This document shows, piece after piece, positions 1-11,741 of a stretch of 11,741 nucleotides of DNA. Numbering within the stretch: the stretch's first letter is position 1; each line of letters opens with the position of its first letter. Origin of the DNA: a virus (taxonomy: Duplodnaviria > Heunggongvirae > Uroviricota > Caudoviricetes); IMG/VR virus record IMGVR_UViG_2778261639_000023, positions 1 through 11,741 of that record; one strand, written 5' to 3'. Below the pieces are notes generated by a model. It worked only from the letters and a program-made list of their open reading frames with translations, was not told the DNA's origin and ran no database searches. A program made the translations under genes and the position numbers.

Positions 1-1158
1 ATGCTCACCGTTAAGCAGATTGAAGCAGCAAAGCCGAAAGAAAAACCATACCGCCTTCTCGATGGTAATGGCCTGTACCTTTATGTCCCTGTATCCGGGA
101 AAAAGGTATGGCAGCTTCGCTACAAGATTGACGGTAAGGAGAAAATCCTGACCGTCGGAAAATATCCACTTATGACTTTGCAGGAGGCAAGGGATAAGGC
201 ATGGGCTGCGAGGAAAGACATCTCGGCTGGCATCGATCCGGTAAAGGCGAAAAAGGCTTCGTCTAACAACAATTCCTTTAGTGCGATTTACAAAGAATGG
301 TACGAGCACAAGAAGCAAGTATGGTCAGTAGGGTATGCGACTGAACTTGCCAAAATGTTTGATGACGACATTTTACCCATCATCGGCGGTCTTGAGATTC
401 AGGATATTGAGCCGATGCAACTGCTGGAAGTAATCCGCAGGTTTGAAGATCGCGGTGCAATGGAGCGAGCCAACAAAGCCCGCAGAAGATGCGGCGAAGT
501 TTTCCGTTACGCTATTGTCACCGGAAGGGCTAAATACAACCCGGCACCTGACCTTGCAGACGCCATGAAGGGATACCGCAAGAAGAACTTCCCGTTTCTT
601 CCTGCAGACCAGATCCCGGCATTTAATAAAGCACTGGCAACATTTTCAGGAAGTATCGTATCGCTCATTGCCACCAAGGTTTTACGCTACACAGCCCTAA
701 GAACGAAAGAGCTTCGTTCCATGCAATGGAAGAACGTCGATTTTGAAAACAGGATTATCACCATCGACGCCAGTGTGATGAAAGGACGCAAAATTCATGT
801 GGTTCCTATGTCAGACCAGGTAGTTGAACTTCTCACTACGCTAAGCTCAATCACCAAACCAGTCTCAGAGTTTGTTTTTGCCGGGCGCAACGATAAGAAG
901 AAGCCAATCTGCGAGAACGCGGTATTGCTTGTGATCAAACAAATCGGCTATGAGGGTCTGGAAAGCGGTCACGGATTCAGGCATGAATTCAGCACGATTA
1001 TGAACGAGCACGAATGGCCTGCTGATGCTATTGAAGTGCAACTGGCACATGCCAACGGCGGATCTGTGCGCGGGATTTACAACCATGCTCAGTATCTCGA
1101 TAAGCGCAGAGAAATGATGCAGTGGTGGGCGGATTGGCTTGATGAGAAGGTGGAGTGA
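1..1158 (+). CDS. intS: Phage integrase, tyrosine recombinase (P4/IntS-type with N-terminal arm-binding domain)
   Basis: 385-aa ORF. N-terminus MLTVKQIEAAKP...YRLLDGNGLYLYV is the signature of the DUF4102 arm-binding domain of P4-family integrases. C-terminal catalytic region has HGFRHEF (HxxR) and a late Tyr (RGIYNHAQY). From memory it closely resembles E. coli K-12 CPS-53 IntS, which also sits beside a gtrABC-like operon; not verified by search. Confidence 0.93.
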   Translation: MLTVKQIEAAKPKEKPYRLLDGNGLYLYVPVSGKKVWQLRYKIDGKEKILTVGKYPLMTLQEARDKAWAARKDISAGIDPVKAKKASSNNNSFSAIYKEWYEHKKQVWSVGYATELAKMFDDDILPIIGGLEIQDIEPMQLLEVIRRFEDRGAMERANKARRRCGEVFRYAIVTGRAKYNPAPDLADAMKGYRKKNFPFLPADQIPAFNKALATFSGSIVSLIATKVLRYTALRTKELRSMQWKNVDFENRIITIDASVMKGRKIHVVPMSDQVVELLTTLSSITKPVSEFVFAGRNDKKKPICENAVLLVIKQIGYEGLESGHGFRHEFSTIMNEHEWPADAIEVQLAHANGGSVRGIYNHAQYLDKRREMMQWWADWLDEKVE

Positions 1159-1311
1159 ACCACCTTAATCATTATCGAAGATCGCAAAGCCTTGCAAGCC
1201 AATGCAAATCTTTGTGTGCATCAGTTTTGTCTCATCAACCACAGCAAGTCATCGATCGATTGAGGCTTGGATGATAGACTTCATGCCTTTCTGAACTTAT
1301 TGATTAAATAA
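1159..1311 (+). promoter_or_regulatory. int-gtrA intergenic region; probable promoter/leader of the gtr operon
   Basis: 153-bp non-coding gap directly upstream of gtrA. Contains -35-like TTGCAA (1192-1197) and TTGAGG (1260-1265) and two GATC sites (1180-1183, 1254-1257). No clean sigma70 -35/-10 pair with canonical spacing could be fixed by eye. Confidence 0.35.
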
Positions 1312-1674
1312 ATGTTAAAGCTATTTGCAAAGTACACCTCGATTGGTGTGCTGAACACACTTATACACTGGGTGGTTTTTGGTGTTTGTATCTATGCAGC
1401 GCATACAAACCAGGCTCTTGCAAACTTCGCAGGTTTCGTTGTGGCTGTGAGCTTTAGCTTCTTCGCGAATGCAAAATTCACATTCAAAGCTTCGACTACA
1501 ACGATGCGCTACATGTTATATGTCGGGTTCATGGGAACACTGAGTGCAACTGTTGGATGGGCTGCTGATAGATGTTCACTTCCTCCAATTGTCACTCTCG
1601 TCACCTTCTCCGCCATCAGCCTGGTGTGCGGTTTCGTCTATTCAAAGTTCATTGTCTTTAGGGATGCGAAATGA
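1312..1674 (+). CDS. gtrA: GtrA, bactoprenol-linked glucose translocase (flippase)
   Basis: 120-aa small hydrophobic protein with about four predicted TM segments, the typical GtrA size. Immediately precedes gtrB with a 4-nt ATGA overlap. Confidence 0.9.
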
Positions 1675-2597
1675 AGATATCTCTTGTAGTTCCTGTCTTC
1701 AATGAAGAAGAAGCGATACCAATTTTTTATAAAACGGTACGTGAGTTCGAAGAGTTGAAGCCATATGAAGTGGAAATTGTTTTCATAAATGACGGAAGCA
1801 AAGACGCTACGGAGTCAATTATTAATGCTCTGGCTGTTTCAGACCCGCTGGTTGTTCCGCTGTCATTTACACGAAACTTTGGTAAAGAACCAGCATTGTT
1901 TGCAGGGCTAGACCATGCAACCGGAGATGCTGTAATTCCAATTGATGTTGACCTGCAAGATCCGATTGAGGTTATTCCCCACCTCATCGAAAAGTGGCAG
2001 GCAGGCTCTGATATGGTGCTGGCTAAGCGAACTGATCGCTCAACTGACGGACGACTGAAACGCAAAACGGCAGAGTGGTTTTATAAATTGCACAACAAAA
2101 TAAGCAACCCAAAGATCGAGGAGAATGTCGGCGATTTCCGGTTAATGAGCCGTGAAGTTGTCGAAAACATTAAGCTTATGCCAGAGCGCAACCTTTTTAT
2201 GAAAGGTGTGCTGAGTTGGGTTGGCGGTCGCACAGATGTTGTCGAGTATGCACGCGCAGAACGAGTGGCAGGCAGTACTAAATTTAATGGATGGAAACTG
2301 TGGAACCTGGCACTTGAGGGGATCACAAGCTTCTCTACTTTCCCGTTGCGCATGTGGACTTACATTGGCCTGTTCGTAGCTGGAGTTGCGTTCATGTACG
2401 GAGCGTGGATGATTGTCGATACGCTGGCATTTGGAAACGCAGTGCGTGGTTATCCATCCTTGCTGGTTTCCATCCTTTTCCTGGGTGGCATACAACTGAT
2501 TGGTATTGGCGTCCTAGGTGAATACATTGGAAGGATTTACATTGAAGTTAAAGGCAGACCAAGATATCTAATTAAGGCACGCAAGAATGAAAAATAA
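1671..2597 (+). CDS. gtrB: GtrB, bactoprenol glucosyltransferase (GT2 family)
   Basis: 308 aa. N-terminal GT2 signature ([12 protein letters not shown]...INDGSKD...DVDLQDP) and C-terminal TM helices, typical of GtrB/ArnC-like polyprenyl-phosphate glycosyltransferases. Translationally coupled to both neighbours. Confidence 0.93.
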
Positions 2598-3987
2598 ACT
2601 ACTTCACTGGTCTGTAGAAGGTTTGGCGGCCATTTTTATAGTCATTGCCTTTAGTTATTACTTTGGGTATGCCTTCACCAATCCAGATTCAGTTATTTAC
2701 AAGATAATTGCTGATGGAATAGTCAAGCACGGAGATCTTCCATATACCTTCGCCTTCGATCATAAGCCAGCTTTTATTTTCTATACTTACGCACTATTTT
2801 CACTTATCTATCCATTTAAGGTAGGCTTTTTCGCTGCCTTTTCGCTTCTTTTTTATCTTTTTACGGGATCATTGATATCTAAGCTAGCGACAGGTAGTTT
2901 CAAGCATGCATTGAGCTCTTCTGCTGCGGTGCTGTTTTTCTATTTCCCATTTCTTGATTTTTCTGGCAATACCGAGATTGTGTATAACCTCTACGCAATA
3001 GCATCTCTTTGCCTGCTTTACTGCTATAGCGCAGGATCAATGTTATTGTTTTTTTCTGGGGTGCTGGCAATTTTTGCGGTAAACACTAACTATATGGCAG
3101 GCGTAATGCTTTCACTGCCAACAATATATTTATTAATGCGAGATGGACTGAGTCCAACTGCCAAAAGGGCTGCATGGTATGCATTAGGAGTGATTGCTGG
3201 ACTTGCTATTATCCTTTTACCTATTGCTATGCAGGGATCATTGATTAGTGGTTATTTCGAGCCGCAAATTCATTTCTTAACCTCATATAACGAATCATCG
3301 CCTGGTTTCAAAACAACACTTTATTATTACTTACCTGTTCTACTGAGCATTCTTATCGCTCCGGCTTGTGTATTATTTGGATGGGTAAAGCGGGACGTTC
3401 CTGCAAGAGGGTGGGTTGCATTTGTAATCACCACCATCTCTGCATCAATAACCCTTATCTTAACAGGTAAGGAGGGTATGCATTACGCAGCCATTTACTT
3501 TGCTCCTGTTGCAATGCTAGCCGTGGCTATGGGAAGAAACCCTGTACCCATAGTGCTGGCATGCTCAATACCATTTAACTTTTACTATGCAAAGAACACT
3601 GAATATCTGTTCGAGTTGCATAACCGAGTAGAGCTATCTTATACCAAAGCTAAGGCTGAGGAGTTTGCTGCGATGCATCAGCTTGTCGGTAATGAGAAAG
3701 TGATGTCAATAAGGGCTTCGCATGTCTTATTCTACCTGTCAGACATGATCCCTTTCCATCCTTACATTTGGAACGGCCATTCAAAACTTGTATTTGGTGA
3801 TAAAGAGAATGAGTATTTTATCAAACAGTTGGAATTATCTCCTAAGTTCGTTCTTACTGGCAATGGATACTGTGAGAAGGCTGATCGCATGATTGATGTT
3901 TGCGATATGATAAAACATCATTACACCAAAAAGATGAGCATTAGCTGGGCGTTCGGATACGGTGGTGATTTGTATCAGGCTAAGTAA
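2587..3987 (+). CDS. gtrC: Serotype-specific O-antigen glucosyltransferase (GtrC / Gtr-type, polytopic membrane protein)
   Basis: 466-aa highly hydrophobic multi-TM protein in third position of the gtr operon; start overlaps the gtrB stop by 11 nt. Strongly AT-rich (about 37% GC in hand-sampled lines), as expected for horizontally acquired type-specific gtr genes. Specificity cannot be inferred. Confidence 0.8.
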
Positions 3988-3991
3988 ATAT

Positions 3992-4009
3992 AAGGGGTGC
4001 CCACCCCTT
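3992..4009. terminator. GC-rich hairpin between convergent gtrC and tailspike genes (candidate bidirectional terminator)
   Basis: AAGGGGTG-cc-CACCCCTT inverted repeat lying between the gtrC stop (3985-3987) and the tailspike stop (4015-4017). Flanked by A/T-rich sequence on the gtrC side; no strong U-tract on the + strand. Confidence 0.5.
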
Positions 4010-4014
4010 ACGCT

Positions 4015-6231
4015 CTACACTTCCCACCATCCTTGTGCTCCTGACATCTTGATAAATGTTTTTGACCATCCATTTCCTGTTTTTGTTTCCGTGCCAACAC
4101 TTAGAGGCACTATTCTATTTTCGGATGCTGTACTGCTAAATATAAACGTAACACTAGAGGATAAAGATACTCCGCGTATCACCACTCTGTCTCCGGGCTT
4201 ACCTCCTGTGATTGTGTCAATGCTTTTAGTTGCGGACGATATCCATACATTGCCATGCGAGAATGGAAGTACTGATCCAGTCAATGACTCAAGGGGTTTT
4301 GATGGGCATGGCTCACCATAGATTTGTGGGTCGTTTACACCTGCTGGAATAAGCAGTGTGGAGTTATACTTATTACCTGATCCATAAAGAGTTGGCTCAG
4401 TTGCTCCGCTCCATGTAATAGGGTAATGAGCAACAGATTTCATAGTAAAATCGTTATCACGCAACCTTAAAATGCACGCCTGAGCATTGATATACGTTAA
4501 GGCACCGCTGTTTGCCATCGCGTCAAACCAGTTGCTTCTGAATGTGGCGTCAGCGTTGTTGAAAACAACAACCGGGTCGAGTTGAGATGCTGCTGATGAA
4601 CCCCAGAGATGCGCCTTGAAGGTGCAGTTTTGTACCTTCATTCCTTTGACACTTCCTATGCGCATGAACTGGAAGCAGTTTTTTAGAATAACGCCATCAA
4701 CAATAATTGCCCCATCAGAGAAGAATGAAGGGTTTATTGCTGGTTGGGCATGTAACCCACGAAATGCCGAGTCGATGTTACCGCCTAAAATATGAACCTT
4801 GCCCATATTACCGAAAATTCGGTAAGCAGTACTCAAGTCAACTTTAGTTGACTGCACCTCGCAGTTGATAAACATAAACGTGTGATCGAAGTTTGACCAT
4901 GAAGGTAGCGGGTCGCCAGTGGAGCCGTCTTTGTCGGTGGTAATAATCTGGACGCTGGAGTTAGCGTATACAGTGTCATCGCTGAACTTAATCTTCATGT
5001 TTTCGAAGATAACGTTCTGCGAATAACGCGTAATTCCACGGTCTCCAGAGTAGCAATAACAAGCTGACTTCGTGTTGTAGGCTGTGATGTTGAGAAAATA
5101 CGCGTTGTAGCATGATGCCACTCGCCACCATCCATCACAGGTAGACACGTTTTCTACATTAAACCGCTCGACATGAATATTGTAAGGATGCAAACCATTT
5201 GTCATGGTTGAGTTTGTTGCTGGGTTTTCCGGTGCCAGACCATACTCAAAGTTACATCCAAATTTCCAAGGCCCTCCACTTATCAGGCAGTCATGCAGTC
5301 TAATGCCATCTAATTCCCCCATTCCGCAAACAACAAACCCATTGTTTAAACCTTTCCCTGTAACATTATAAATTCTGTCAATCTCAACGTCACTGGTCAT
5401 TGCACTTCCAAGATATTGACCACCAACCCAAATCATTACAGTTTGAGGCGCTGATGGATTGCTGGCGGTTGCATCTGCCCTTGTTTCTGCAACGTCATAT
5501 ACAAAGTTGGATATGCGGACTTTTTTTGAATTGTAAACGACGAAAGTATGGTTCGCGCGACCACCTGATGTAGGAATAAACCCTTGGACGTTATCCATTA
5601 TCTTCGCGCCATTGAAGTTCAGCGTGATATTACTGACTCCAATGCATTGCACGGTGCCGGTAAGGAGATACGTACTGGATGGATTGCCAATAAACTCCAC
5701 ACCCACGCCGCTGTAGGTGGTGATGGCGGTGTTTAGCGCTGCAGAGCTATCAAGAACACCCGACTTATCTACGCCCGGCAGATCGTCGATAAACATGAAT
5801 ACACGATCAAGGTATTGCGTGAGATTAACGCCGCCCTTGGTACCAATCAGGTTTGTTCCTGGAGGGTCAAATGAAGCTAATTGCTGACTGAACTGATCAG
5901 GATCATACTTCAGCACATTAGGGAAATAGAATTGCCGCGCCCCATACGCATCATAAACAGCCATAGAATGGCCTTGCTCAGTTACGAACTTGGTAATCTG
6001 TCCATTATATACAGGGTAACCAGCAGCGTTAATGATGATTGGTTGCGAAACAGGAACGTGAGAGCCGTCTTCGTTTTCCACATAAACCTGAATCTGGTTT
6101 TCAGGATTTACCGGGTCAGTGTCAATTTTACCGATATAAATTTTGCCATTGGCTACGGCTTTAAAAGAACGAGCCATAGTGAAGAGTTGCGAAGGCATGC
6201 TGACCACAACATTGGCGGTGATATCTGACAT
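4015..6231 (-). CDS. Tailspike protein (P22 gp9-type N-terminal head-binding domain plus divergent beta-helix receptor-binding/enzymatic domain)
   Basis: N-terminus [59 protein letters not shown] closely matches the P22 tailspike N-terminus as recalled ([59 protein letters not shown]). Start moved from the track's 6279 to the ATG at 6229-6231, which has a GGAG Shine-Dalgarno 8 nt upstream and aligns with the P22 start. 738 aa. Confidence 0.9.
5890..6231 (-). other. Tailspike N-terminal capsid/head-binding domain (conserved module, about residues 1-114)
   Basis: Conservation with the P22 head-binding domain continues through ...[10 protein letters not shown]...[10 protein letters not shown], then similarity to P22 is lost. 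Boundary is approximate. Confidence 0.75.
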
Positions 6232-6352
6232 TTCATTGCTCCAGACGAATGATATGATGCAACCATGATGTGATTGCATACCGAAATGGTACTATTGAGT
6301 ATTTATCCAGTAGGTTACGATGCCATTCCACCCAACTGGTGAGGCATCAAGG
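6232..6352. promoter_or_regulatory. Divergent control region between tailspike (-) and mnt (+); candidate promoters and operator-like inverted repeats
   Basis: 121-bp gap. Inverted repeat TGCAA-N11-TTGCA (about 6259-6279) and ATGATG direct repeats one helical turn apart (6254-6259, 6265-6270) on the tailspike side; CACC-N5-GGTG inverted repeat (about 6329-6342) overlapping the mnt RBS (GAGG 6342-6345). -10-like TATCAT on the minus strand about 20 nt upstream of the tailspike ATG; possible TTGAGT/TACGAT pair for mnt. Functional sites are unproven. Confidence 0.45.
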
Positions 6353-6619
6353 ATGTACAGCAAATACGACGAGGCGCAGTTTCACTTGAGACTTCCGCAT
6401 GAACTCCACGCGAAAATTAAACAGCGTGCGAAGATGAATAACAGGTCGCTGAACTCAGAGATAATTGCAGCGATTGAAGAATCGTTGGCTAAACAAAGCT
6501 CTGCATCCGTTTACATTGACGATGCAGAGCGTATGGCAGAACAACAATCTGATATGGTTAAGAAAATGGTTTTTGAAACGCTTAAGACCATGTATAGCAA
6601 TAATAAAAAGGAAACATAG
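6353..6619 (+). CDS. mnt: Mnt-like ribbon-helix-helix repressor (immI region)
   Basis: 88 aa from the ATG at 6353 (GAGG SD 7 nt upstream; the track's extra 11 N-terminal codons are unlikely). Aligns along its length with P22 Mnt as recalled: RHH region ...QFHLRLPHELHAKIKQRAKMNNRSLNSEIIAAIEESL and C-terminal tetramerisation region DAERMAEQQSDMVKKMVFETLK (P22: DAERLADEQSELVKKMVFDTLK). Confidence 0.85.
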   Translation: MYSKYDEAQFHLRLPHELHAKIKQRAKMNNRSLNSEIIAAIEESLAKQSSASVYIDDAERMAEQQSDMVKKMVFETLKTMYSNNKKET

Positions 6620-6689
6620 AAATCTAGTTTCCGGCTAAAATGGCATTGCCTTCATGATATCCTGTGAAAAACTAAGGAGAGTTAACCAT

Positions 6690-7175
6690 ATGAAAAAATC
6701 ACTGTTAATTATCCCGCTTCTGCTGGTTGGATGCGCAAAAGTAAGTGACTATCAAGCAAGTTGCGAACAACGCTATCAAAAGCTTAGCGATATGGCTAAT
6801 TGCCTTGATGCTAGTGTGAAGAACGACTCACGCATGGCATCTGCACCAACACCTAAGCTGTATGTCCTTGCTGCAAAGATGCTCGGGCAAGGTGTTGATG
6901 AAGGTAAAATAAGTGACGCACAGGCAAGACTTGAGCTTCAAAATCTTTATGTTCAATTACAAAGCCAAGAAAAAGCCCAACAAATAGCGCAAAGCCAAGC
7001 ATTCCAGCAGGCTTTATTGAATTATCAGGCTGTAAACACAATGCAAGCGATCGAGCAAAAAGCGAGACAGCCTGTTATAACTCAACCCTATCCAACACGC
7101 GTTGACACTTACACAAACTGCAATTCAGGGTTTGGAAATACAGTCACATGCAACAGTAGCAGTAACATAAGATAA
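6690..7175 (+). CDS. Lipoprotein of unknown function (moron at the sieA-equivalent position); type II signal peptide, Gln-rich coiled-coil-like segment, Cys pairs
   Basis: Start at ATG 6690 with strong SD AAGGAGA (6675-6680); 161 aa. MKKSLLIIPLLLVGC has a lipobox (LVGC; Cys15 at 6732-6734) with Ala at +2, suggesting outer-membrane sorting. Mature part has Cys pairs (SCEQ...NCLD; TNCNSGFGNTVTCN) and a Q/A-rich heptad-like stretch (LQNLYVQLQSQEKAQQIAQSQAFQQALL). No family recognised. Confidence 0.75.
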   Translation: MKKSLLIIPLLLVGCAKVSDYQASCEQRYQKLSDMANCLDASVKNDSRMASAPTPKLYVLAAKMLGQGVDEGKISDAQARLELQNLYVQLQSQEKAQQIAQSQAFQQALLNYQAVNTMQAIEQKARQPVITQPYPTRVDTYTNCNSGFGNTVTCNSSSNIR

Positions 7176-7265
7176 CAATCAGCAAAGGTATCGCCTATGC
7201 AGAGGGGTACGATAAACCTAGCATTCTACATATTTGGTTTTTGCACGTTCCTGGTGTTTGAAAAG

Positions 7266-9263
7266 CTATTCTGACAACGCATCAGACTTAGCCCCCTGAG
7301 TCAGGGCGTTAATGGCCTTTTGTGCCTGCTGCATGGCTTTCTCGAACGCTGTTGATCCGCGTTGGGTGTTTGCCATTCGGAGCATTGCATTTCTGAATGG
7401 CTCGCTCTCATAGGCGCGAGTAAGAAGTCCATAGCTTACCGCTGCGCCAGTTGTCGCAGGGTTCATTGCTGTCCCATATCCGATAATGAACGGGATGGTT
7501 TGCTGCCCTGTTGGTGTTGTTACTGCCGCTTTTGCAGCCTGCTGCGTGGATTGCAGGTAGTTTTTCAATCCTTTCAGATAAGCGGCTTCCTGACCTTTAA
7601 ATGTGATGCCAGTCTGGTTTTGCAGGATGTTAAGCTGCCGAAGGAACTGGTCAGGGGATCCGCCAGATTTCTCCATCGCCTTTCCAATGATGCCATTGCG
7701 CATTTGCGCCCTGCCAACACGACCAACTGAGTTATACAGCGTCTTAATTTCAGATTTGTTCTTGCTGAATAGCATGTTGTTGACAACTTCCGGCGTCAGA
7801 TCGCCTTTCATGAGAACATTCTTCAGCCTGGTATTCTTGAGTTTCGCCGCTTCGTCAGCGTAGACGGCATTGGCCTGCTGATATTTACGGAGAGTATCGT
7901 TGCCAAGATTCTGACCAATGGCACCATTGATATCGTCGGTCATCGCCTTGTAAACGCGCTGAATGGCGGCATCGGAACGGTTTGGTAACACTGGTCGCTC
8001 ACCCTTCACGTCCATTCTGAACTGGCTGCGCAGATCGCTTAATTGCTTCAAGTCCAGATTTACCGGACCATCAGGACCAGCATTGCGAACAAGCTCATCA
8101 CGATATGACTGAAGTTTTGAAATAGTCTCGTTATCAGCGACCTTACCAAGCTTCTGCAGATTAGATATTTCTGTATCAATCTGCTGAATTGCTCGCGCAG
8201 GCTGAATGTTTACTCCAGCCATAGCATTCTGAACCTGCTCCAGTCGATTACCGGCGGCACGACGAATTCCTGATGTTTTCGCTTTAAGGCTGTCAATAAC
8301 AACCGCTGGATCATACTCACCGAATTTATCGGCAAATCTCTGCACCAGCTGGCTTCTCGCTTCCTGTTGCGTTGCTCTCATTCCGCTTGTGCCAGCCAGA
8401 GGGATATTTTCTGCTGTAGTCTGCGCCATTTTTCCGACGCGGGAAGTTGGTTGTAACAGGTCTGTGGTGTGCAGAGGAACTCCTTCACGCTCTGCAAATC
8501 TGATAGCCTGCTGCGCTTCTGGCGCGATAGCACCACGAACGCCACGATAAGCAGCACCTAATCCACGTCCGGCAGCGTTAATAGCACCGCCAGCAAGTAC
8601 ACCAACGCCTAAATCGGTGGCGAGTGCTTCCGCATCATCTTTCGCACTATTTGCAGCAAGTGATCCAACTGCGTTTTCTGCTAGAAGGCGAGTTGCCCCC
8701 TGAGCAATTCGACCAGCAAGTGTTGGTGCCTGTGTTGCCGCTCTCTCAACGCCAGCAGGAGTGAGGTAAGGCAATGCTTCAGCAAACACCCTGCCCTCTG
8801 TAGTTTGTGGAGTCAGCGCGCCTTGCTGAAGGCCAAAGTCCTGCTCTAATCCCTGCGTTGTTACTCGTGGCGATGGTTGATATGTACCATCGCCAATGCC
8901 GAGTTTACCGCCAGCCCAAGCCGCCGCGCTTGTTACAGCATCGGCAACTGATGCAGGTATGTTTGCCACGTTCACGCCAGCCTGCACCAGTCCGCGACCA
9001 GTCTCTTTTACTGCTTCGCCAAGATCAGACATAAATCCACTTTGCTGTGGTTGTTGCTGTGCTACTGGTTGCTGTGTCTCCACTTGCTGCACAGATAGCA
9101 ATGGATAGGCAGCATAGAAAGCTTTCTTAGCCTGCTCTGCATTTTCTCCGGCTTGCGGGGCCACGACTTCATTGAAGTATTGCTCCTGAGCCTGCGCTTT
9201 TTGTTCTGGTGCTAACGCCTGATACTGTGGAGAGGCGATAACATCTTTCCATGCTTTAGCCAT
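7266..9263 (-). CDS. Ejection (DNA-injection, E) protein, P22 gp16-like
   Basis: 665 aa, Ala/Gln/Gly-rich with low-complexity segments. Last gene of the minus-strand cluster, directly before the immI/tailspike region as gene 16 is in P22-like phages. Start ATG (9261-9263) overlaps the upstream gene's stop as TAATG. Assignment rests on size, synteny and composition, not verified alignment. Confidence 0.7.
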   Translation of the reverse strand: MAKAWKDVIASPQYQALAPEQKAQAQEQYFNEVVAPQAGENAEQAKKAFYAAYPLLSVQQVETQQPVAQQQPQQSGFMSDLGEAVKETGRGLVQAGVNVANIPASVADAVTSAAAWAGGKLGIGDGTYQPSPRVTTQGLEQDFGLQQGALTPQTTEGRVFAEALPYLTPAGVERAATQAPTLAGRIAQGATRLLAENAVGSLAANSAKDDAEALATDLGVGVLAGGAINAAGRGLGAAYRGVRGAIAPEAQQAIRFAEREGVPLHTTDLLQPTSRVGKMAQTTAENIPLAGTSGMRATQQEARSQLVQRFADKFGEYDPAVVIDSLKAKTSGIRRAAGNRLEQVQNAMAGVNIQPARAIQQIDTEISNLQKLGKVADNETISKLQSYRDELVRNAGPDGPVNLDLKQLSDLRSQFRMDVKGERPVLPNRSDAAIQRVYKAMTDDINGAIGQNLGNDTLRKYQQANAVYADEAAKLKNTRLKNVLMKGDLTPEVVNNMLFSKNKSEIKTLYNSVGRVGRAQMRNGIIGKAMEKSGGSPDQFLRQLNILQNQTGITFKGQEAAYLKGLKNYLQSTQQAAKAAVTTPTGQQTIPFIIGYGTAMNPATTGAAVSYGLLTRAYESEPFRNAMLRMANTQRGSTAFEKAMQQAQKAINALTQGAKSDALSE

Positions 9264-10696
9264 TAATCACCCCATAGTGAAGAAAAGTTACTGCTGGCTG
9301 CTGGCTGTGATACCTGTGTGGGTTGAGATTGCTGCCGCTGAGATTTACCAACATTAACGTTATATTGTTGGTTGTAATTGTTGGTGTATTCCTGAATCTC
9401 ACGAATCGACTGCTGCATAGCCTCCGGGCTTGAATAGTCAACCTGCGGCATCCCCTGAAAATACATCTTCGCTTCTGCTACGGTGTTAATACCACTGGCA
9501 CCCATGTCCCTTGCTGCCGCCACGCCCTGATTCTGCATTCTTCCCTGAATACGTTGTGCTGAGTTATATAACTGACGCTGATCTTTTCCTGTTAATCGGC
9601 TGCGAACATCAGCACCAATTGCCGGGTTACCTGCACCGCCGGTCATTCCTGTCATGAAATCGAGAGCAGAAGCGTCTGCATTTGCGATCGCGTCGATATC
9701 CTTCTTCATGGCATAGTTTTGTGCTGATGCAGACGATGTTGCAGGCGCTGCGATTGAACTGGCAGGAACGCGAACCATATTCCCCTCGTTGTCGATGCCT
9801 TCGTAGAACGCATTTGCCCCAGCGCCGTGAAGTTTCCCGCCAACCGTTACCGTTCTACCATCTGCCAGTTGCACAACATTCTCCCCGCCAGCATCAGGAC
9901 GGCCTCGAACACGAAGATATGTCTTTTGTTGCTCTGGAGACAGGCTGTTGAAATATTGATATTCTTTAACAGATGCAGGAACAGCACCTCCAGCAGTGCG
10001 CAGGGAGTTTTCACGGCTAACAGCAATGCTTTGCGCCTGTAAACCTTCCCCAGCTTTATTGCTGCGAATCGTCTCTGCCAACTCGCCACGCTCAATATCC
10101 CGACCAGCCATCTTGTCCTGAACATTGAAGTAATCAATCGGACCAAGCGCAGCCATCCCAAGATGATCAACAAATTCTGTGAAACCTTGTGGATTTTGCT
10201 GATACATTTTCGCCACATCCAGAGGGTCTACTCCGGCACGAGTAAGCTCAGATGAGTTGTTCTGCAACCATGACATCATGGCTTCTGGAGATGAAGCTGC
10301 GAGTCTGGCACTTGCTGCCAGTGTACCGACAGTGGAACGCTGGTCTTCATCGACAAATTTCATGCCGTTTCTTACAGCGTCAAACTGCTCAGGATACTGT
10401 GATGCCAGTTTTCGCATTGCATCGCGGTCGCCAGATGTATATGCATCAGCATAAGCCTGCTGAAACTCTTGCTGCCGCTTCTGCTGATCCATCTGCTTAT
10501 ACATATCCATGACAGATGAAATGCCCTGCAAAGCCTGCAAGCCAACGTTATTACGTCCTGAACGCTCCATCTCATTATTCTGTCGAATGTATGCAAGCGT
10601 GGCGTCTGCATCACTTGCTCTTGGAGCGTTGGAGTTCATGCCGCCTAACCCGGCAAGAAGCGCGCCTGAATTACCAGCCTGTTGCCATGTAGCCAA
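9263..10696 (-). CDS. Ejection (E) protein, P22 gp20-like
   Basis: 477 aa (P22 gp20 is of similar size), immediately upstream of and coupled to the gp16-like gene. Apparent TTG start at 10694-10696 with a strong GGAGG SD 6 nt upstream; an in-frame stop precludes a longer N-terminus. Confidence 0.7.
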
Positions 10697-10708
10697 GAGA
10701 CACCTCCA

Positions 10709-11032
10709 TTAAAACAGTGAACCAAGAAGGCCGACGCCAGCACCAATTGCTGTACCCCAACCAGGCATGATTGCAGTACCTGCAGCTGCACCTGCCGCAG
10801 CTCCACCCAAGGCGCTCTGAAATCCTGATGGTTTAACTCCGGATGGTTGGGTTATAGTGCCGAAGAAACTAACCGCTGAGAACGGCGCTAAGGGTGTGCT
10901 ATCCGGTGAATTTTCAGAAACGACGTTTATAAGCTGCCCGGAATGTTTTGGCGATGATGATTGCGATACCTGTGACGGTAGCGGGCGGATTGAAATTAAA
11001 GTACCAGTCACGTGGACGACCATAAAATCCAT
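10709..11032 (-). pseudogene. Possible 3' remnant of an ejection-protein gene (gp7-like) with C-terminal glycine-zipper segment; extent and intactness uncertain
   Basis: Stop TAA (10709-10711) sits 1 nt before the gp20-like SD, so the 3' end is in operon context. C-terminus ...ALGGAAAGAAAGTAIMPGWGTAIGAGVGLLGSLF looks like a membrane glycine zipper. N-terminal two-thirds is Ser/Pro-rich low complexity with no SD before either ATG (11032 or 11021), and 107 aa is far shorter than P22 gp7 (about 229 aa). It overlaps a plausible + strand ORF. Confidence 0.35.
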
Positions 11033-11093
11033 CTGGGATAAAGGTATTGCGTATTTTTCAGCAGAACCGAGGCAGGAGGTTAACCGTGGCTAA
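10857..11093 (+). CDS. Hypothetical small Cys-rich (zinc-finger-like) protein; conflicts with the minus-strand ORF 10709..11032
   Basis: 78-aa ORF containing CPEC-x5-CDTCDGSG (CxxC...CxxCxGxG, reminiscent of DnaJ-type zinc knuckles). Its end overlaps the start of the downstream ASCH-like gene by 8 nt, suggesting coupling. Weaknesses: GTG start and poor SD. Confidence 0.3.
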   Translation: MPKKLTAENGAKGVLSGEFSETTFISCPECFGDDDCDTCDGSGRIEIKVPVTWTTIKSIWDKGIAYFSAEPRQEVNRG

Positions 11094-11370
11094 CCTGCAA
11101 CTTGCAGTCAAAGGCGAATACTTCGATGCCATGATTCGCGGAGAGAAAACAGAAGAATATCGCCTGTGTAATGACTACTGGAATAAGCGCCTCGTTAACC
11201 GCGAGTATGGCAGTCTGATCATCACGAAGGGATATCCGAAGCGCGACGATTCCAGCCGCAGAATTGATGTTCCGTATGACGGATATGAAATCAAGACAAT
11301 CACACATCCGCACTTCGGTGATAAACCGGTAAAGGTGTTCGCGATAAAGGTGAATATCGGCAATGAATAA
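11086..11370 (+). CDS. ASCH/PUA-like domain protein (DUF3850-like)
   Basis: Start chosen at GTG 11086, preceded by a perfect AGGAGG (11074-11079) with 6-nt spacing; the track's TTG at 11047 has no SD. 94 aa. Motif ...KGEYFDAMIRGEKTEEYR...GSLIITKGY... fits the beta-barrel ASCH/DUF3850 pattern common in phage accessory regions. Confidence 0.65.
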   Translation: MANLQLAVKGEYFDAMIRGEKTEEYRLCNDYWNKRLVNREYGSLIITKGYPKRDDSSRRIDVPYDGYEIKTITHPHFGDKPVKVFAIKVNIGNE

Positions 11371-11374
11371 CAAT

Positions 11375-11429
11375 CCTCGCACTCGCGGGGATTTCTTTTA
11401 TCTGAACTCGCTACGGCGAGTTTTGTTTT
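11375..11429 (+). terminator. Two tandem hairpins downstream of the ASCH-like gene; the second is a good intrinsic terminator
   Basis: Hairpin 1: CCTCGC-actc-GCGGGG (11375-11390, one G-U pair) followed by ATTTCTTTT. Hairpin 2: ACTCGC-tacg-GCGAGT (11406-11421, 6-bp stem, 4-nt loop) followed by TTTGTTTT (11422-11429). Confidence 0.55.
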
Positions 11430-11441
11430 ATGGAGATGATT

Positions 11442-11741
11442 ATGGCCTGTTCAACATTCAACCCTCTAACGTTACAGAAATACCAGCCAGACCCTGAAGA
11501 TTTATGCTCACTGTGTGGCGGAAATCATGGTAAAGCCGCCATGATCGAATGTAAGGACAAAATCCACATATGCCTTAATTGCGTTGATGTCCTCGTTGAT
11601 ATCAAAAATGATAGAGAAGATAAAAAGCGTAGCGAGGCTGTTCGCGCCTTAGATTCATGGATGCGAGATGGGTATAGTGCCGCGCAAATTTATGACTTAG
11701 CAATATCAAAAGGCGAAATACCAGGAGTGCGCATCGAATAA
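11442..11741 (+). CDS. Hypothetical zinc-ribbon protein (CxxC-x16-CxxC)
   Basis: Start chosen at ATG 11442 (GGAG 11432-11435, 6-nt spacer); 99 aa. Contains CSLCGG...HICLNC, an N-terminal zinc-ribbon-like motif, followed by a charged helical C-terminal half. Ends exactly at the window edge with TAA. Family not recognised. Confidence 0.55.
   Translation: MACSTFNPLTLQKYQPDPEDLCSLCGGNHGKAAMIECKDKIHICLNCVDVLVDIKNDREDKKRSEAVRALDSWMRDGYSAAQIYDLAISKGEIPGVRIE

Follow-up and report, generated by a model that had tools for sequence, protein, structure and literature searches.

IMG/VR virus record IMGVR_UViG_2778261639_000023 comes from a P22-like (Lederbergvirus) prophage, and positions 1 to 11,741 of that record, the whole stretch analyzed here and referred to as the window, contain the right end of the late region, read backwards. 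A homologue of the P22 repressor gene mnt lies next to the tailspike gene. The segment from 6277 to 6619 is probably a self-contained, autoregulated orphan Mnt module that is under purifying selection, with the tailspike gene served by late read-through. The module would be the remainder (or the precursor) of a P22-type immI region, in the known "mnt-only ant moron" form, and would consist of a 17-bp operator, CATACCGAAATGGTACT, the adjoining promoter Pmnt and an mnt gene whose recognition strand has changed together with the operator half-sites. Mnt made by the prophage would bind the single predicted site and, because this site abuts or overlaps the -35 element of Pmnt, binding would set the level of mnt and of the cargo gene that follows it, here a lipoprotein gene. 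The tailspike transcript would come from gene 16 and run across the moron in antisense, as in other P22-like phages.

An mnt homologue without arc and ant

A sequence-only reading of the window had described mnt as divergent from the tailspike gene, with 121 bp between them and no arc or ant. The open reading frame (ORF) map gave the same picture. The tailspike gene occupies 4015-6231 on the minus strand and mnt occupies 6353-6619 on the plus strand, and no ORF in the gap (6232-6352) could encode Arc or Ant. Neither gene was found between mnt and the tailspike gene in the relatives examined. The gene order is that annotated in P22 (16, sieA, mnt, arc, ant, 9) minus arc and ant, and mnt sits in a moron flanked by the homologues of genes 16 and 9, in the direction opposite to the late operon. 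The arc-ant junction, the template of sar, is missing, and an Rfam scan of 5800-7400 returned one sub-threshold, unrelated match only.

The mnt product has 88 residues and starts MYSKYDEAQFHLRLP. Its N-terminal ribbon-helix-helix domain matched Pfam PF03869 (Arc, E=8.4e-15, residues 7-49), its C-terminal domain matched PF11423 (Repressor_Mnt, tetramerisation, coiled-coil, E=4e-12, residues 57-81), and the P22 Mnt structures 1MNT (E=5.7e-19) and 1QEY (E=1.2e-6) were recovered from the PDB. Judged by its domain content, the protein is predicted to be a tetrameric ribbon-helix-helix repressor. The translation contains the recognition strand QFHLRLP, with the contact triad Q9-H11-R13, as previously read, and the strands that had been given for comparison, HFNFRMP in P22 Mnt and QFNLRWP in Arc, agreed with the sequences of those proteins.

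The predicted operator and Pmnt

The operator was located by aligning the mnt upstream regions of 13 phages, anchored at the mnt ATG. In P22 the 17-bp operator O_mnt, AGGTCCACCGTGGACCT, is followed by A and then by the Pmnt -35 element TTGAGA. The same register in the window gives CATACCGAAATGGTACT (6277-6293), then A, then TTGAGT. This positional homologue of O_mnt contains the dyad TACC (6279-6282)-N5-GGTA (6288-6291), centered on 6285. The sequence-only reading had failed to find a P22-type O_mnt and had proposed a non-P22 operator. The P22 sequence is indeed absent, and both the strand and its predicted operator differ from those of P22. This operator, a diverged homologue of O_mnt, is present at the homologous position, 6277-6293, and not at the dyads that had been put forward.

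Across all classes of Mnt described below, 66-71 nt separate the center of the operator from the mnt ATG, while its distance to the tailspike ATG ranges from 42 to 76 nt and reaches 660 nt in Escherichia coli EC1515. Since the distance to mnt is fixed and that to the tailspike gene is variable, the operator, judged by its spacing, belongs to mnt and not to the tailspike gene. The site at 6277-6293 is the single match in the window, and the 38.7-kb Sf101 genome has one copy of the 15-mer without mismatch, at its mnt locus only; no second operator was found in the window and no convincing one in Sf101.

Every QFHLR-type Mnt examined, from six genera or more, was accompanied by the dyad TACC-N5-GGTA, which takes the form (A/G)TACC-N5-GGTAC in the Klebsiella, Rahnella and metagenome loci. 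Across 12 diverse loci of the same class as the window (class C), TACC, AAA, GTA, ATTG and TTACGATGC were unchanged; to the left of the operator these loci are unrelated in sequence. The Rahnella operator is a perfect GTACC-GTTAA-GGTAC, which argues that the arms count more than the A-rich center. The Mnt homologue is thus predicted, from conservation and position, to bind 6277-6293. In one Citrobacter sp. locus (L099, ~2425-2520), a premature stop follows codon 4 of mnt and the right half-site has AGTAC in place of GGTAC; this single case is the only class C locus seen in which both mnt and the operator are damaged.

Promoters were scored on both strands with a simple sigma-70 position weight matrix built from consensus frequencies, with P22 Pant (16.3) and P22 Pmnt (12.8) as controls, which scored as expected. 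The predicted Pmnt of the window (6295-6321, plus strand) consists of -35 TTGAGT (6295-6300), a 15-nt spacer and -10 TACGAT (6316-6321). It scored 7.5, and its position is conserved in the mnt-only phages, where scores ranged from 7.5 to 12.0. Because of the 15-nt spacer and the modest score, the assignment rests on homology to the annotated P22 Pmnt, TTGAGA-17-TATCAT. In the loci seen, the 15-nt spacer always occurred with -35 TTGAGT (the window, Sf101, L043, L055 and L095) and the 17-nt spacer of relatives always with TTGTTG.

Three classes of recognition strand and operator

Alignment against the immI regions of P22-like phages, a check that had been suggested with the earlier reading, separated three classes in which strand and operator differ together. 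Class A (P22, epsilon34 and UPF_BP1) has the strand HFNFRMP and the operator GGTCCAC-C-GTGGACC, with arc and ant present. Class B (ST160, L, 720R6 and Brookers) has QFNLRL(P/T) and AGACCAC-(G/T)-GTGGTCT, the left arm of Brookers being ATCAC; QFNLRLP pairs with AAGACCAC(G/T)GTGGTCTT. Class C, the window and all other QFHLR proteins, has QFHLRL(P/T/S) and (A/G)TACC-N5-GGTAC. Arc and ant are absent from classes B and C.

The operator changes are symmetric in both half-sites, at positions 2/16 and 4/14 between classes A and B and at positions 3/15 between classes B and C. Symmetric changes that track the strand are expected of a co-evolving site for a dimer of dimers. The class B and class C gaps share the arc/ant-less layout and are ~70% identical end to end, which indicates that strand and operator diverged within this layout. 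By these comparisons Q-H-R with (A/G)TACC-N5-GGTAC makes up a third natural specificity class of Mnt, a modest new element. Arc and Mnt are textbook models for the reading of DNA by a two-stranded beta-sheet, and the three natural pairs (H-N-R with GGTCCAC, Q-N-R with AGACCAC and Q-H-R with (A/G)TACC) are ready-made material for testing rules of specificity and the use of repressor-operator pairs that are orthogonal to one another. Phage CUS-3 (L222, 4166-4695) carries tandem mnt paralogues, PQVNLRLP and PHFNFRMP, together with ant and without arc; this locus was of no help toward the class C operator.

Purifying selection on mnt

The possibility was considered that the module is a functionless, decaying remnant of immI, carried along with the segment from gene 16 to the tailspike gene. 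Such a leftover was raised as a possibility for the mnt-like gene of phage L in its genome paper (10.1101/2020.10.05.325894), and one Citrobacter copy of mnt is a pseudogene. However, a survey of QFHLR-type Mnt proteins yielded 109 protein clusters of 41-88 residues, nearly all of Mnt length, and across six or more genera almost every copy of mnt has an intact ORF. The ratio of nonsynonymous to synonymous substitution rates (dN/dS) in the DNA-binding half of mnt is 0.01-0.1, with synonymous sites saturated. By this measure mnt is under purifying selection. Moreover, neither the arms of the operator nor the promoter elements vary over this divergence, and the symmetric operator changes follow those of the recognition strand. 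Decay is therefore disfavored and must be considered very improbable.

The two inverted repeats as probable RNA hairpins

Two inverted repeats in the gap had been proposed as the operator. Both are present. TGCAA (6258-6262)-N11-TTGCA (6274-6278) extends to ATGCAACCA-N5-TGATTGCAT at 6257-6279, with 9-nt arms, and CACC (6329-6332)-N5-GGTG (6338-6341) overlaps the GAGG ribosome-binding site of mnt at 6341-6344. The computational search for dyads that had been called for recovered both, at a frequency not beyond chance within the window: in dinucleotide shuffles of the gap, a repeat with 9-nt arms and one mismatch occurred in 19%, and for arms of 4 nt the expected number of inverted repeats is about ten. 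Consequently, their meaning had to be sought in the relatives. Single-sequence folding of both hairpins was non-significant, with z-scores from -1.3 to +0.35, and the support for them is comparative only.

In the tailspike sense (minus strand) the first repeat would form the stem-loop AUGCAAUCA-CAUCA-UGGUUGCAU, which ends 25 nt 5' of the tailspike AUG. Among 16 variants of 6257-6279, 97.2% of cells were paired in the tailspike sense vs. 87.5% in the opposite sense, an asymmetry due to several positions that are G-U when read in the one sense but C-A in the opposite sense. The variants included one compensatory change from G-C to U-A and several changes from wobble to Watson-Crick pairs. Other lineages have other, non-homologous hairpins at the same place, CCGUAGC-CAU-GCUGCGG in P22 and CCGCAGC-UCU-GCUGUGG in L059 and L223, with variants in L225 and L226; in a hand alignment of these, 92.9% of cells were paired in the tailspike sense vs. 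77.4% in the opposite sense. ST160 likewise has a non-homologous hairpin there. The repeat at 6257-6279 is thus most likely, on covariation, a tailspike-leader RNA hairpin rather than a protein-binding site, and may serve in processing or stabilizing the late transcript. A tailspike-sense stem-loop about 25 nt 5' of the AUG was seen in nearly all P22-like loci examined, including P22 itself (L005, ~1586-1602), with stems that either lack homology or differ by compensatory changes.

The second repeat, CACC-CAACU-GGUG (6329-6344 with the Shine-Dalgarno sequence GAGG, plus strand), has counterparts with other stems in all three classes: CACU/AGUG in P22, CACUU/AAGUG in ST160 and GUCC/GGAC in L096. 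It starts about 7-8 nt past the -10 element, near the presumed 5' end of the transcript. Comparison across the classes suggests that it would form a 5'-terminal hairpin of the mnt mRNA over the ribosome-binding site.

As operators, both repeats were rejected. The TGCAA palindrome is restricted to the lineage of the window, Sf101, IME10 and L095, and VSe13, JEP4, L059, L096 and others have the same recognition strand with a different sequence there. The CACC repeat has counterparts in every Mnt class, whatever the recognition strand. The likely operator is TACC-N5-GGTA, 6279-6291.

Transcription of the tailspike gene

The sequence-only reading had further suggested that the counterpart of the ant promoter drives the tailspike gene under Mnt control. 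This was not borne out. The best tailspike-directed match in the gap scored 6.0 (4.5-6.0 across gaps) vs. 16.3 for P22 Pant, and the place of such matches with respect to the operator is not the same in gaps of the window type as in those of the VSe13 type. A separate consensus scan found no promoter-like site on the minus strand of the gap. In place of the -35 element of P22 Pant, TTGACA, the sequence common to classes B and C is GATGCC(A/G)(T/A)TCCAC, and a strong Pant that overlaps the operator and diverges from Pmnt was not found here. A Mnt-repressed tailspike promoter is accordingly not supported by the sequence, although a weak one may exist.

No terminator-like site was detected in the scan between gene 16 and the tailspike gene. 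P22 is still viable when the segment from mnt through ant is deleted (PMC11016777). Together with the lack of a Pant equivalent, these points make read-through from the late operon the most economical, and most likely, source of tailspike transcripts. In E. coli EC1515 (L228, 1636-2362) a gene for an HNH endonuclease is inserted at the tailspike start. The former tailspike start survives there as five initial codons attached to the mnt gap, and the tailspike gene has a new start and leader. An HNH insertion between the mnt gap and the tailspike gene was also seen in Rahnella (L224) and in phage Kapi1 (L013).

Alternatively, in a broader form of that suggestion, Mnt could gate transcription into the tailspike gene, either by repressing a weak promoter that overlaps the operator, a relic of Pant, or by acting as a roadblock to late read-through. 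Any transcript from the moron into the tailspike gene has to cross the operator, which is always located between that gene and mnt, a weak match (ATGGCA-17-AATACT) is found close to where Pant used to be, and the Mnt-operator pair has been selected without ant, so that some target is needed. An effect of Mnt or Arc on read-through from Plate into gene 9 was suggested by Villafane et al. 2008 (PMC2629481). However, the promoter scores and their shifting positions, the empty consensus scan, the viability of the P22 deletion and the variable distance between operator and tailspike gene, which the HNH insertion extends to 660 nt in EC1515, all count against gating, and it is regarded as unlikely. 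Roadblock has a further difficulty, as antiterminated late transcription usually passes bound repressors. A more specific form, in which the Mnt-operator pair, after the loss of an antirepressor or without ever having had one, has been re-tuned and co-opted as a cis roadblock that meters read-through into the tailspike gene, possibly together with the leader hairpin, is rather doubtful. If it were correct, the late operon of a phage would contain a valve under the control of a repressor.

A possible role of Mnt in trans

Another explanation is that the orphan Mnt acts mainly in trans, silencing the antirepressor promoters of superinfecting or co-resident phages that carry the same operator, with the local site being autoregulatory only. 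A lysogen would then be protected from Ant-triggered induction. Such a role would explain why hundreds of genomes have kept mnt but not ant, as well as the selection on the DNA-binding half, and antirepressor cross-talk between prophages has been documented (PMC7380047; see also PMC3121763). However, neither a QFHLR-type Mnt nor TACC-N5-GGTAC occurred beside arc or ant in the contexts examined or in the Sf101 genome. Furthermore, no motif adjacent to arc or ant was present among the matches listed, from 120 viral contigs, in a motif scan that did not extend to bacterial genomes. A main role in trans is accordingly judged improbable.

In that scan of viral contigs with the pattern CATACCNAAAYGGTAC, the matches listed comprised 52 sites at type C mnt loci and 74 others, none of them in an antirepressor context. 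One of the 74 (L163) is a type C mnt gap at a contig end, and the rest are scattered single sites and one high-GC group. The latter consists of unrelated higher-GC contigs (L108, L113, L139, L150, L174, L190 and others) with two copies of TATATACATACCGAAACGGTACAC 515 bp apart, each about 20 nt 5' of a small ORF that directly precedes a terminase-like gene. The sequence immediately flanking these sites showed no QFHLR-type protein, and they may be coincidental or a convergent operator.

Several observations weigh against the autoregulated module as a complete account. With its 15-nt spacer, the Pmnt homologue scores a modest 7.5. Vershon et al. are said to have found in 1987 that P22 Mnt bound at O_mnt does not repress Pmnt and stimulates it indirectly by silencing Pant. 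Simple autorepression is thus not established even in P22, where Mnt reportedly helps Pmnt only through the silencing of Pant. In addition, mnt of Sf101 has no cargo gene, and a repressor that acts only on itself fails to explain strong purifying selection. Because self-regulation alone does not account for selection on the Mnt-operator pair, this account has probably missed a further Mnt target, be it in cis or in trans. These findings leave the general view of P22-like genomes as it was. What Mnt does in very common prophages of E. coli, Shigella, Klebsiella and Salmonella that have no antirepressor is a small but real question.

Neighboring genes

The tailspike gene encodes 738 residues (translation MSDITANVV...) with a P22-type head-binding N-terminal domain (Pfam PF09008, Head_binding, residues 1-113, E=1.6e-65). 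Its Shine-Dalgarno sequence, GGAG (6239-6242, minus strand), lies 7 nt 5' of the AUG, and CTGGAGC is kept in the leaders of relatives. The remainder of the protein, the receptor-binding part, had no Pfam match.

Downstream of mnt, an ORF of 161 residues (6690-7175, plus strand) with the lipobox LLVGC matched phrog_6067 (function unknown, E=5.7e-110) and had no Pfam match. No promoter-like or terminator-like site was found in the scan of the interval between mnt and this ORF. The lipoprotein-like ORF is probably co-transcribed with mnt as the moron cargo, and it may be a lysogenic-conversion or exclusion gene. The cargo slot 3' of mnt varies among relatives, with a Rap1a-like protein in L226, other small ORFs elsewhere and nothing in Sf101. 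Beyond the lipoprotein ORF in window order lie homologues of gp16, gp20 and gp7, all on the minus strand and identified by profile matches.

The other end of the window contains an integrase gene (1-1158) followed, at 1312-3987, by homologues of gtrA and gtrB and an ORF in the gtrC position (466 residues, 2587-3987, plus strand) that had no Pfam match. The latter and the receptor-binding part of the tailspike presumably form a serotype-specific pair for O-antigen modification and recognition.

Distribution and comparison with known systems

The module is widespread. Of 5426 complete E. coli genomes, 236 covered at least 80% of a 601-bp probe (tailspike start, gap and mnt), and at least 247 relatives were found in IMG/VR. 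An mnt gene that abuts the tailspike gene without arc or ant is present in Sf101, IME10, VSe13, ST160, 720R6, L and the Proteus phage Brookers. QFHLR-type mnt also occurs in Klebsiella, Rahnella, Buttiauxella, Citrobacter and Serratia (in Serratia only mnt and the operator could be read). Wherever it was readable, the upstream neighbor was the tailspike gene, or an HNH insertion and then the tailspike gene.

The variable region was named the "ant moron" by Villafane et al. 2008 (PMC2629481), who described ST64T, ST104 and Para1 as having mnt and one ORF only. Both the layout and the idea that Mnt influences tailspike transcription are therefore already in print.

Homologues of Mnt carry the label "partition protein ATPase" in Sf101 (gp14, L001/L101), ST160, epsilon34, ST64T, UPF_BP1 and phrog_795. 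This name is an annotation error that is propagating in RefSeq phage records and in PHROG.

Among the closest counterparts of the window are the Shigella phage Sf101 and the E. coli phage IME10, isolated phage genomes and not only prophage remnants. Their gaps are 97% identical to that of the window, with the same operator, hairpins and N-terminal half of Mnt. The C-terminal tail of Mnt differs. In Sf101, where the gene is among those mislabeled, no lipoprotein cargo follows mnt, and in IME10 there is no annotated feature at the mnt locus.

The mnt-only ant moron phages (L, ST64T, ST104, ST160 and SE1) share with the window the succession of leader hairpin, operator, Pmnt and mnt, in a gap that is ~70% identical. 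They differ in having QFNLRLP with AAGACCACGGTGGTCTT, where the window has QFHLRLP with ATACC-N5-GGTAC, and in having a leader hairpin of the P22 type, for which the lineage of the window has a non-homologous replacement.

The immI region of P22, whose Mnt is represented by 1MNT and 1QEY, has a homologous repressor with 47% identity (tblastn), and both domains are shared. It has the same location between genes 16 and 9, the same direction against the late operon and a dyad operator directly 5' of the Pmnt -35 element. In contrast, the window lacks Pant, arc, sar and ant, the triad is Q-H-R instead of H-N-R, and the half-sites are (A/G)TACC instead of GGTCCAC. The window also has an A-rich, non-symmetric operator center and a 15-nt spacer in Pmnt. 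Finally, P22 Arc (1ARQ, 1PAR) belongs to the same ribbon-helix-helix fold family and shares the strand numbering Q9-F10-x11-L12-R13. Arc differs in having N11 where the window Mnt has H11, in lacking the C-terminal tetramerisation domain and in recognizing a 21-bp operator inside Pant.

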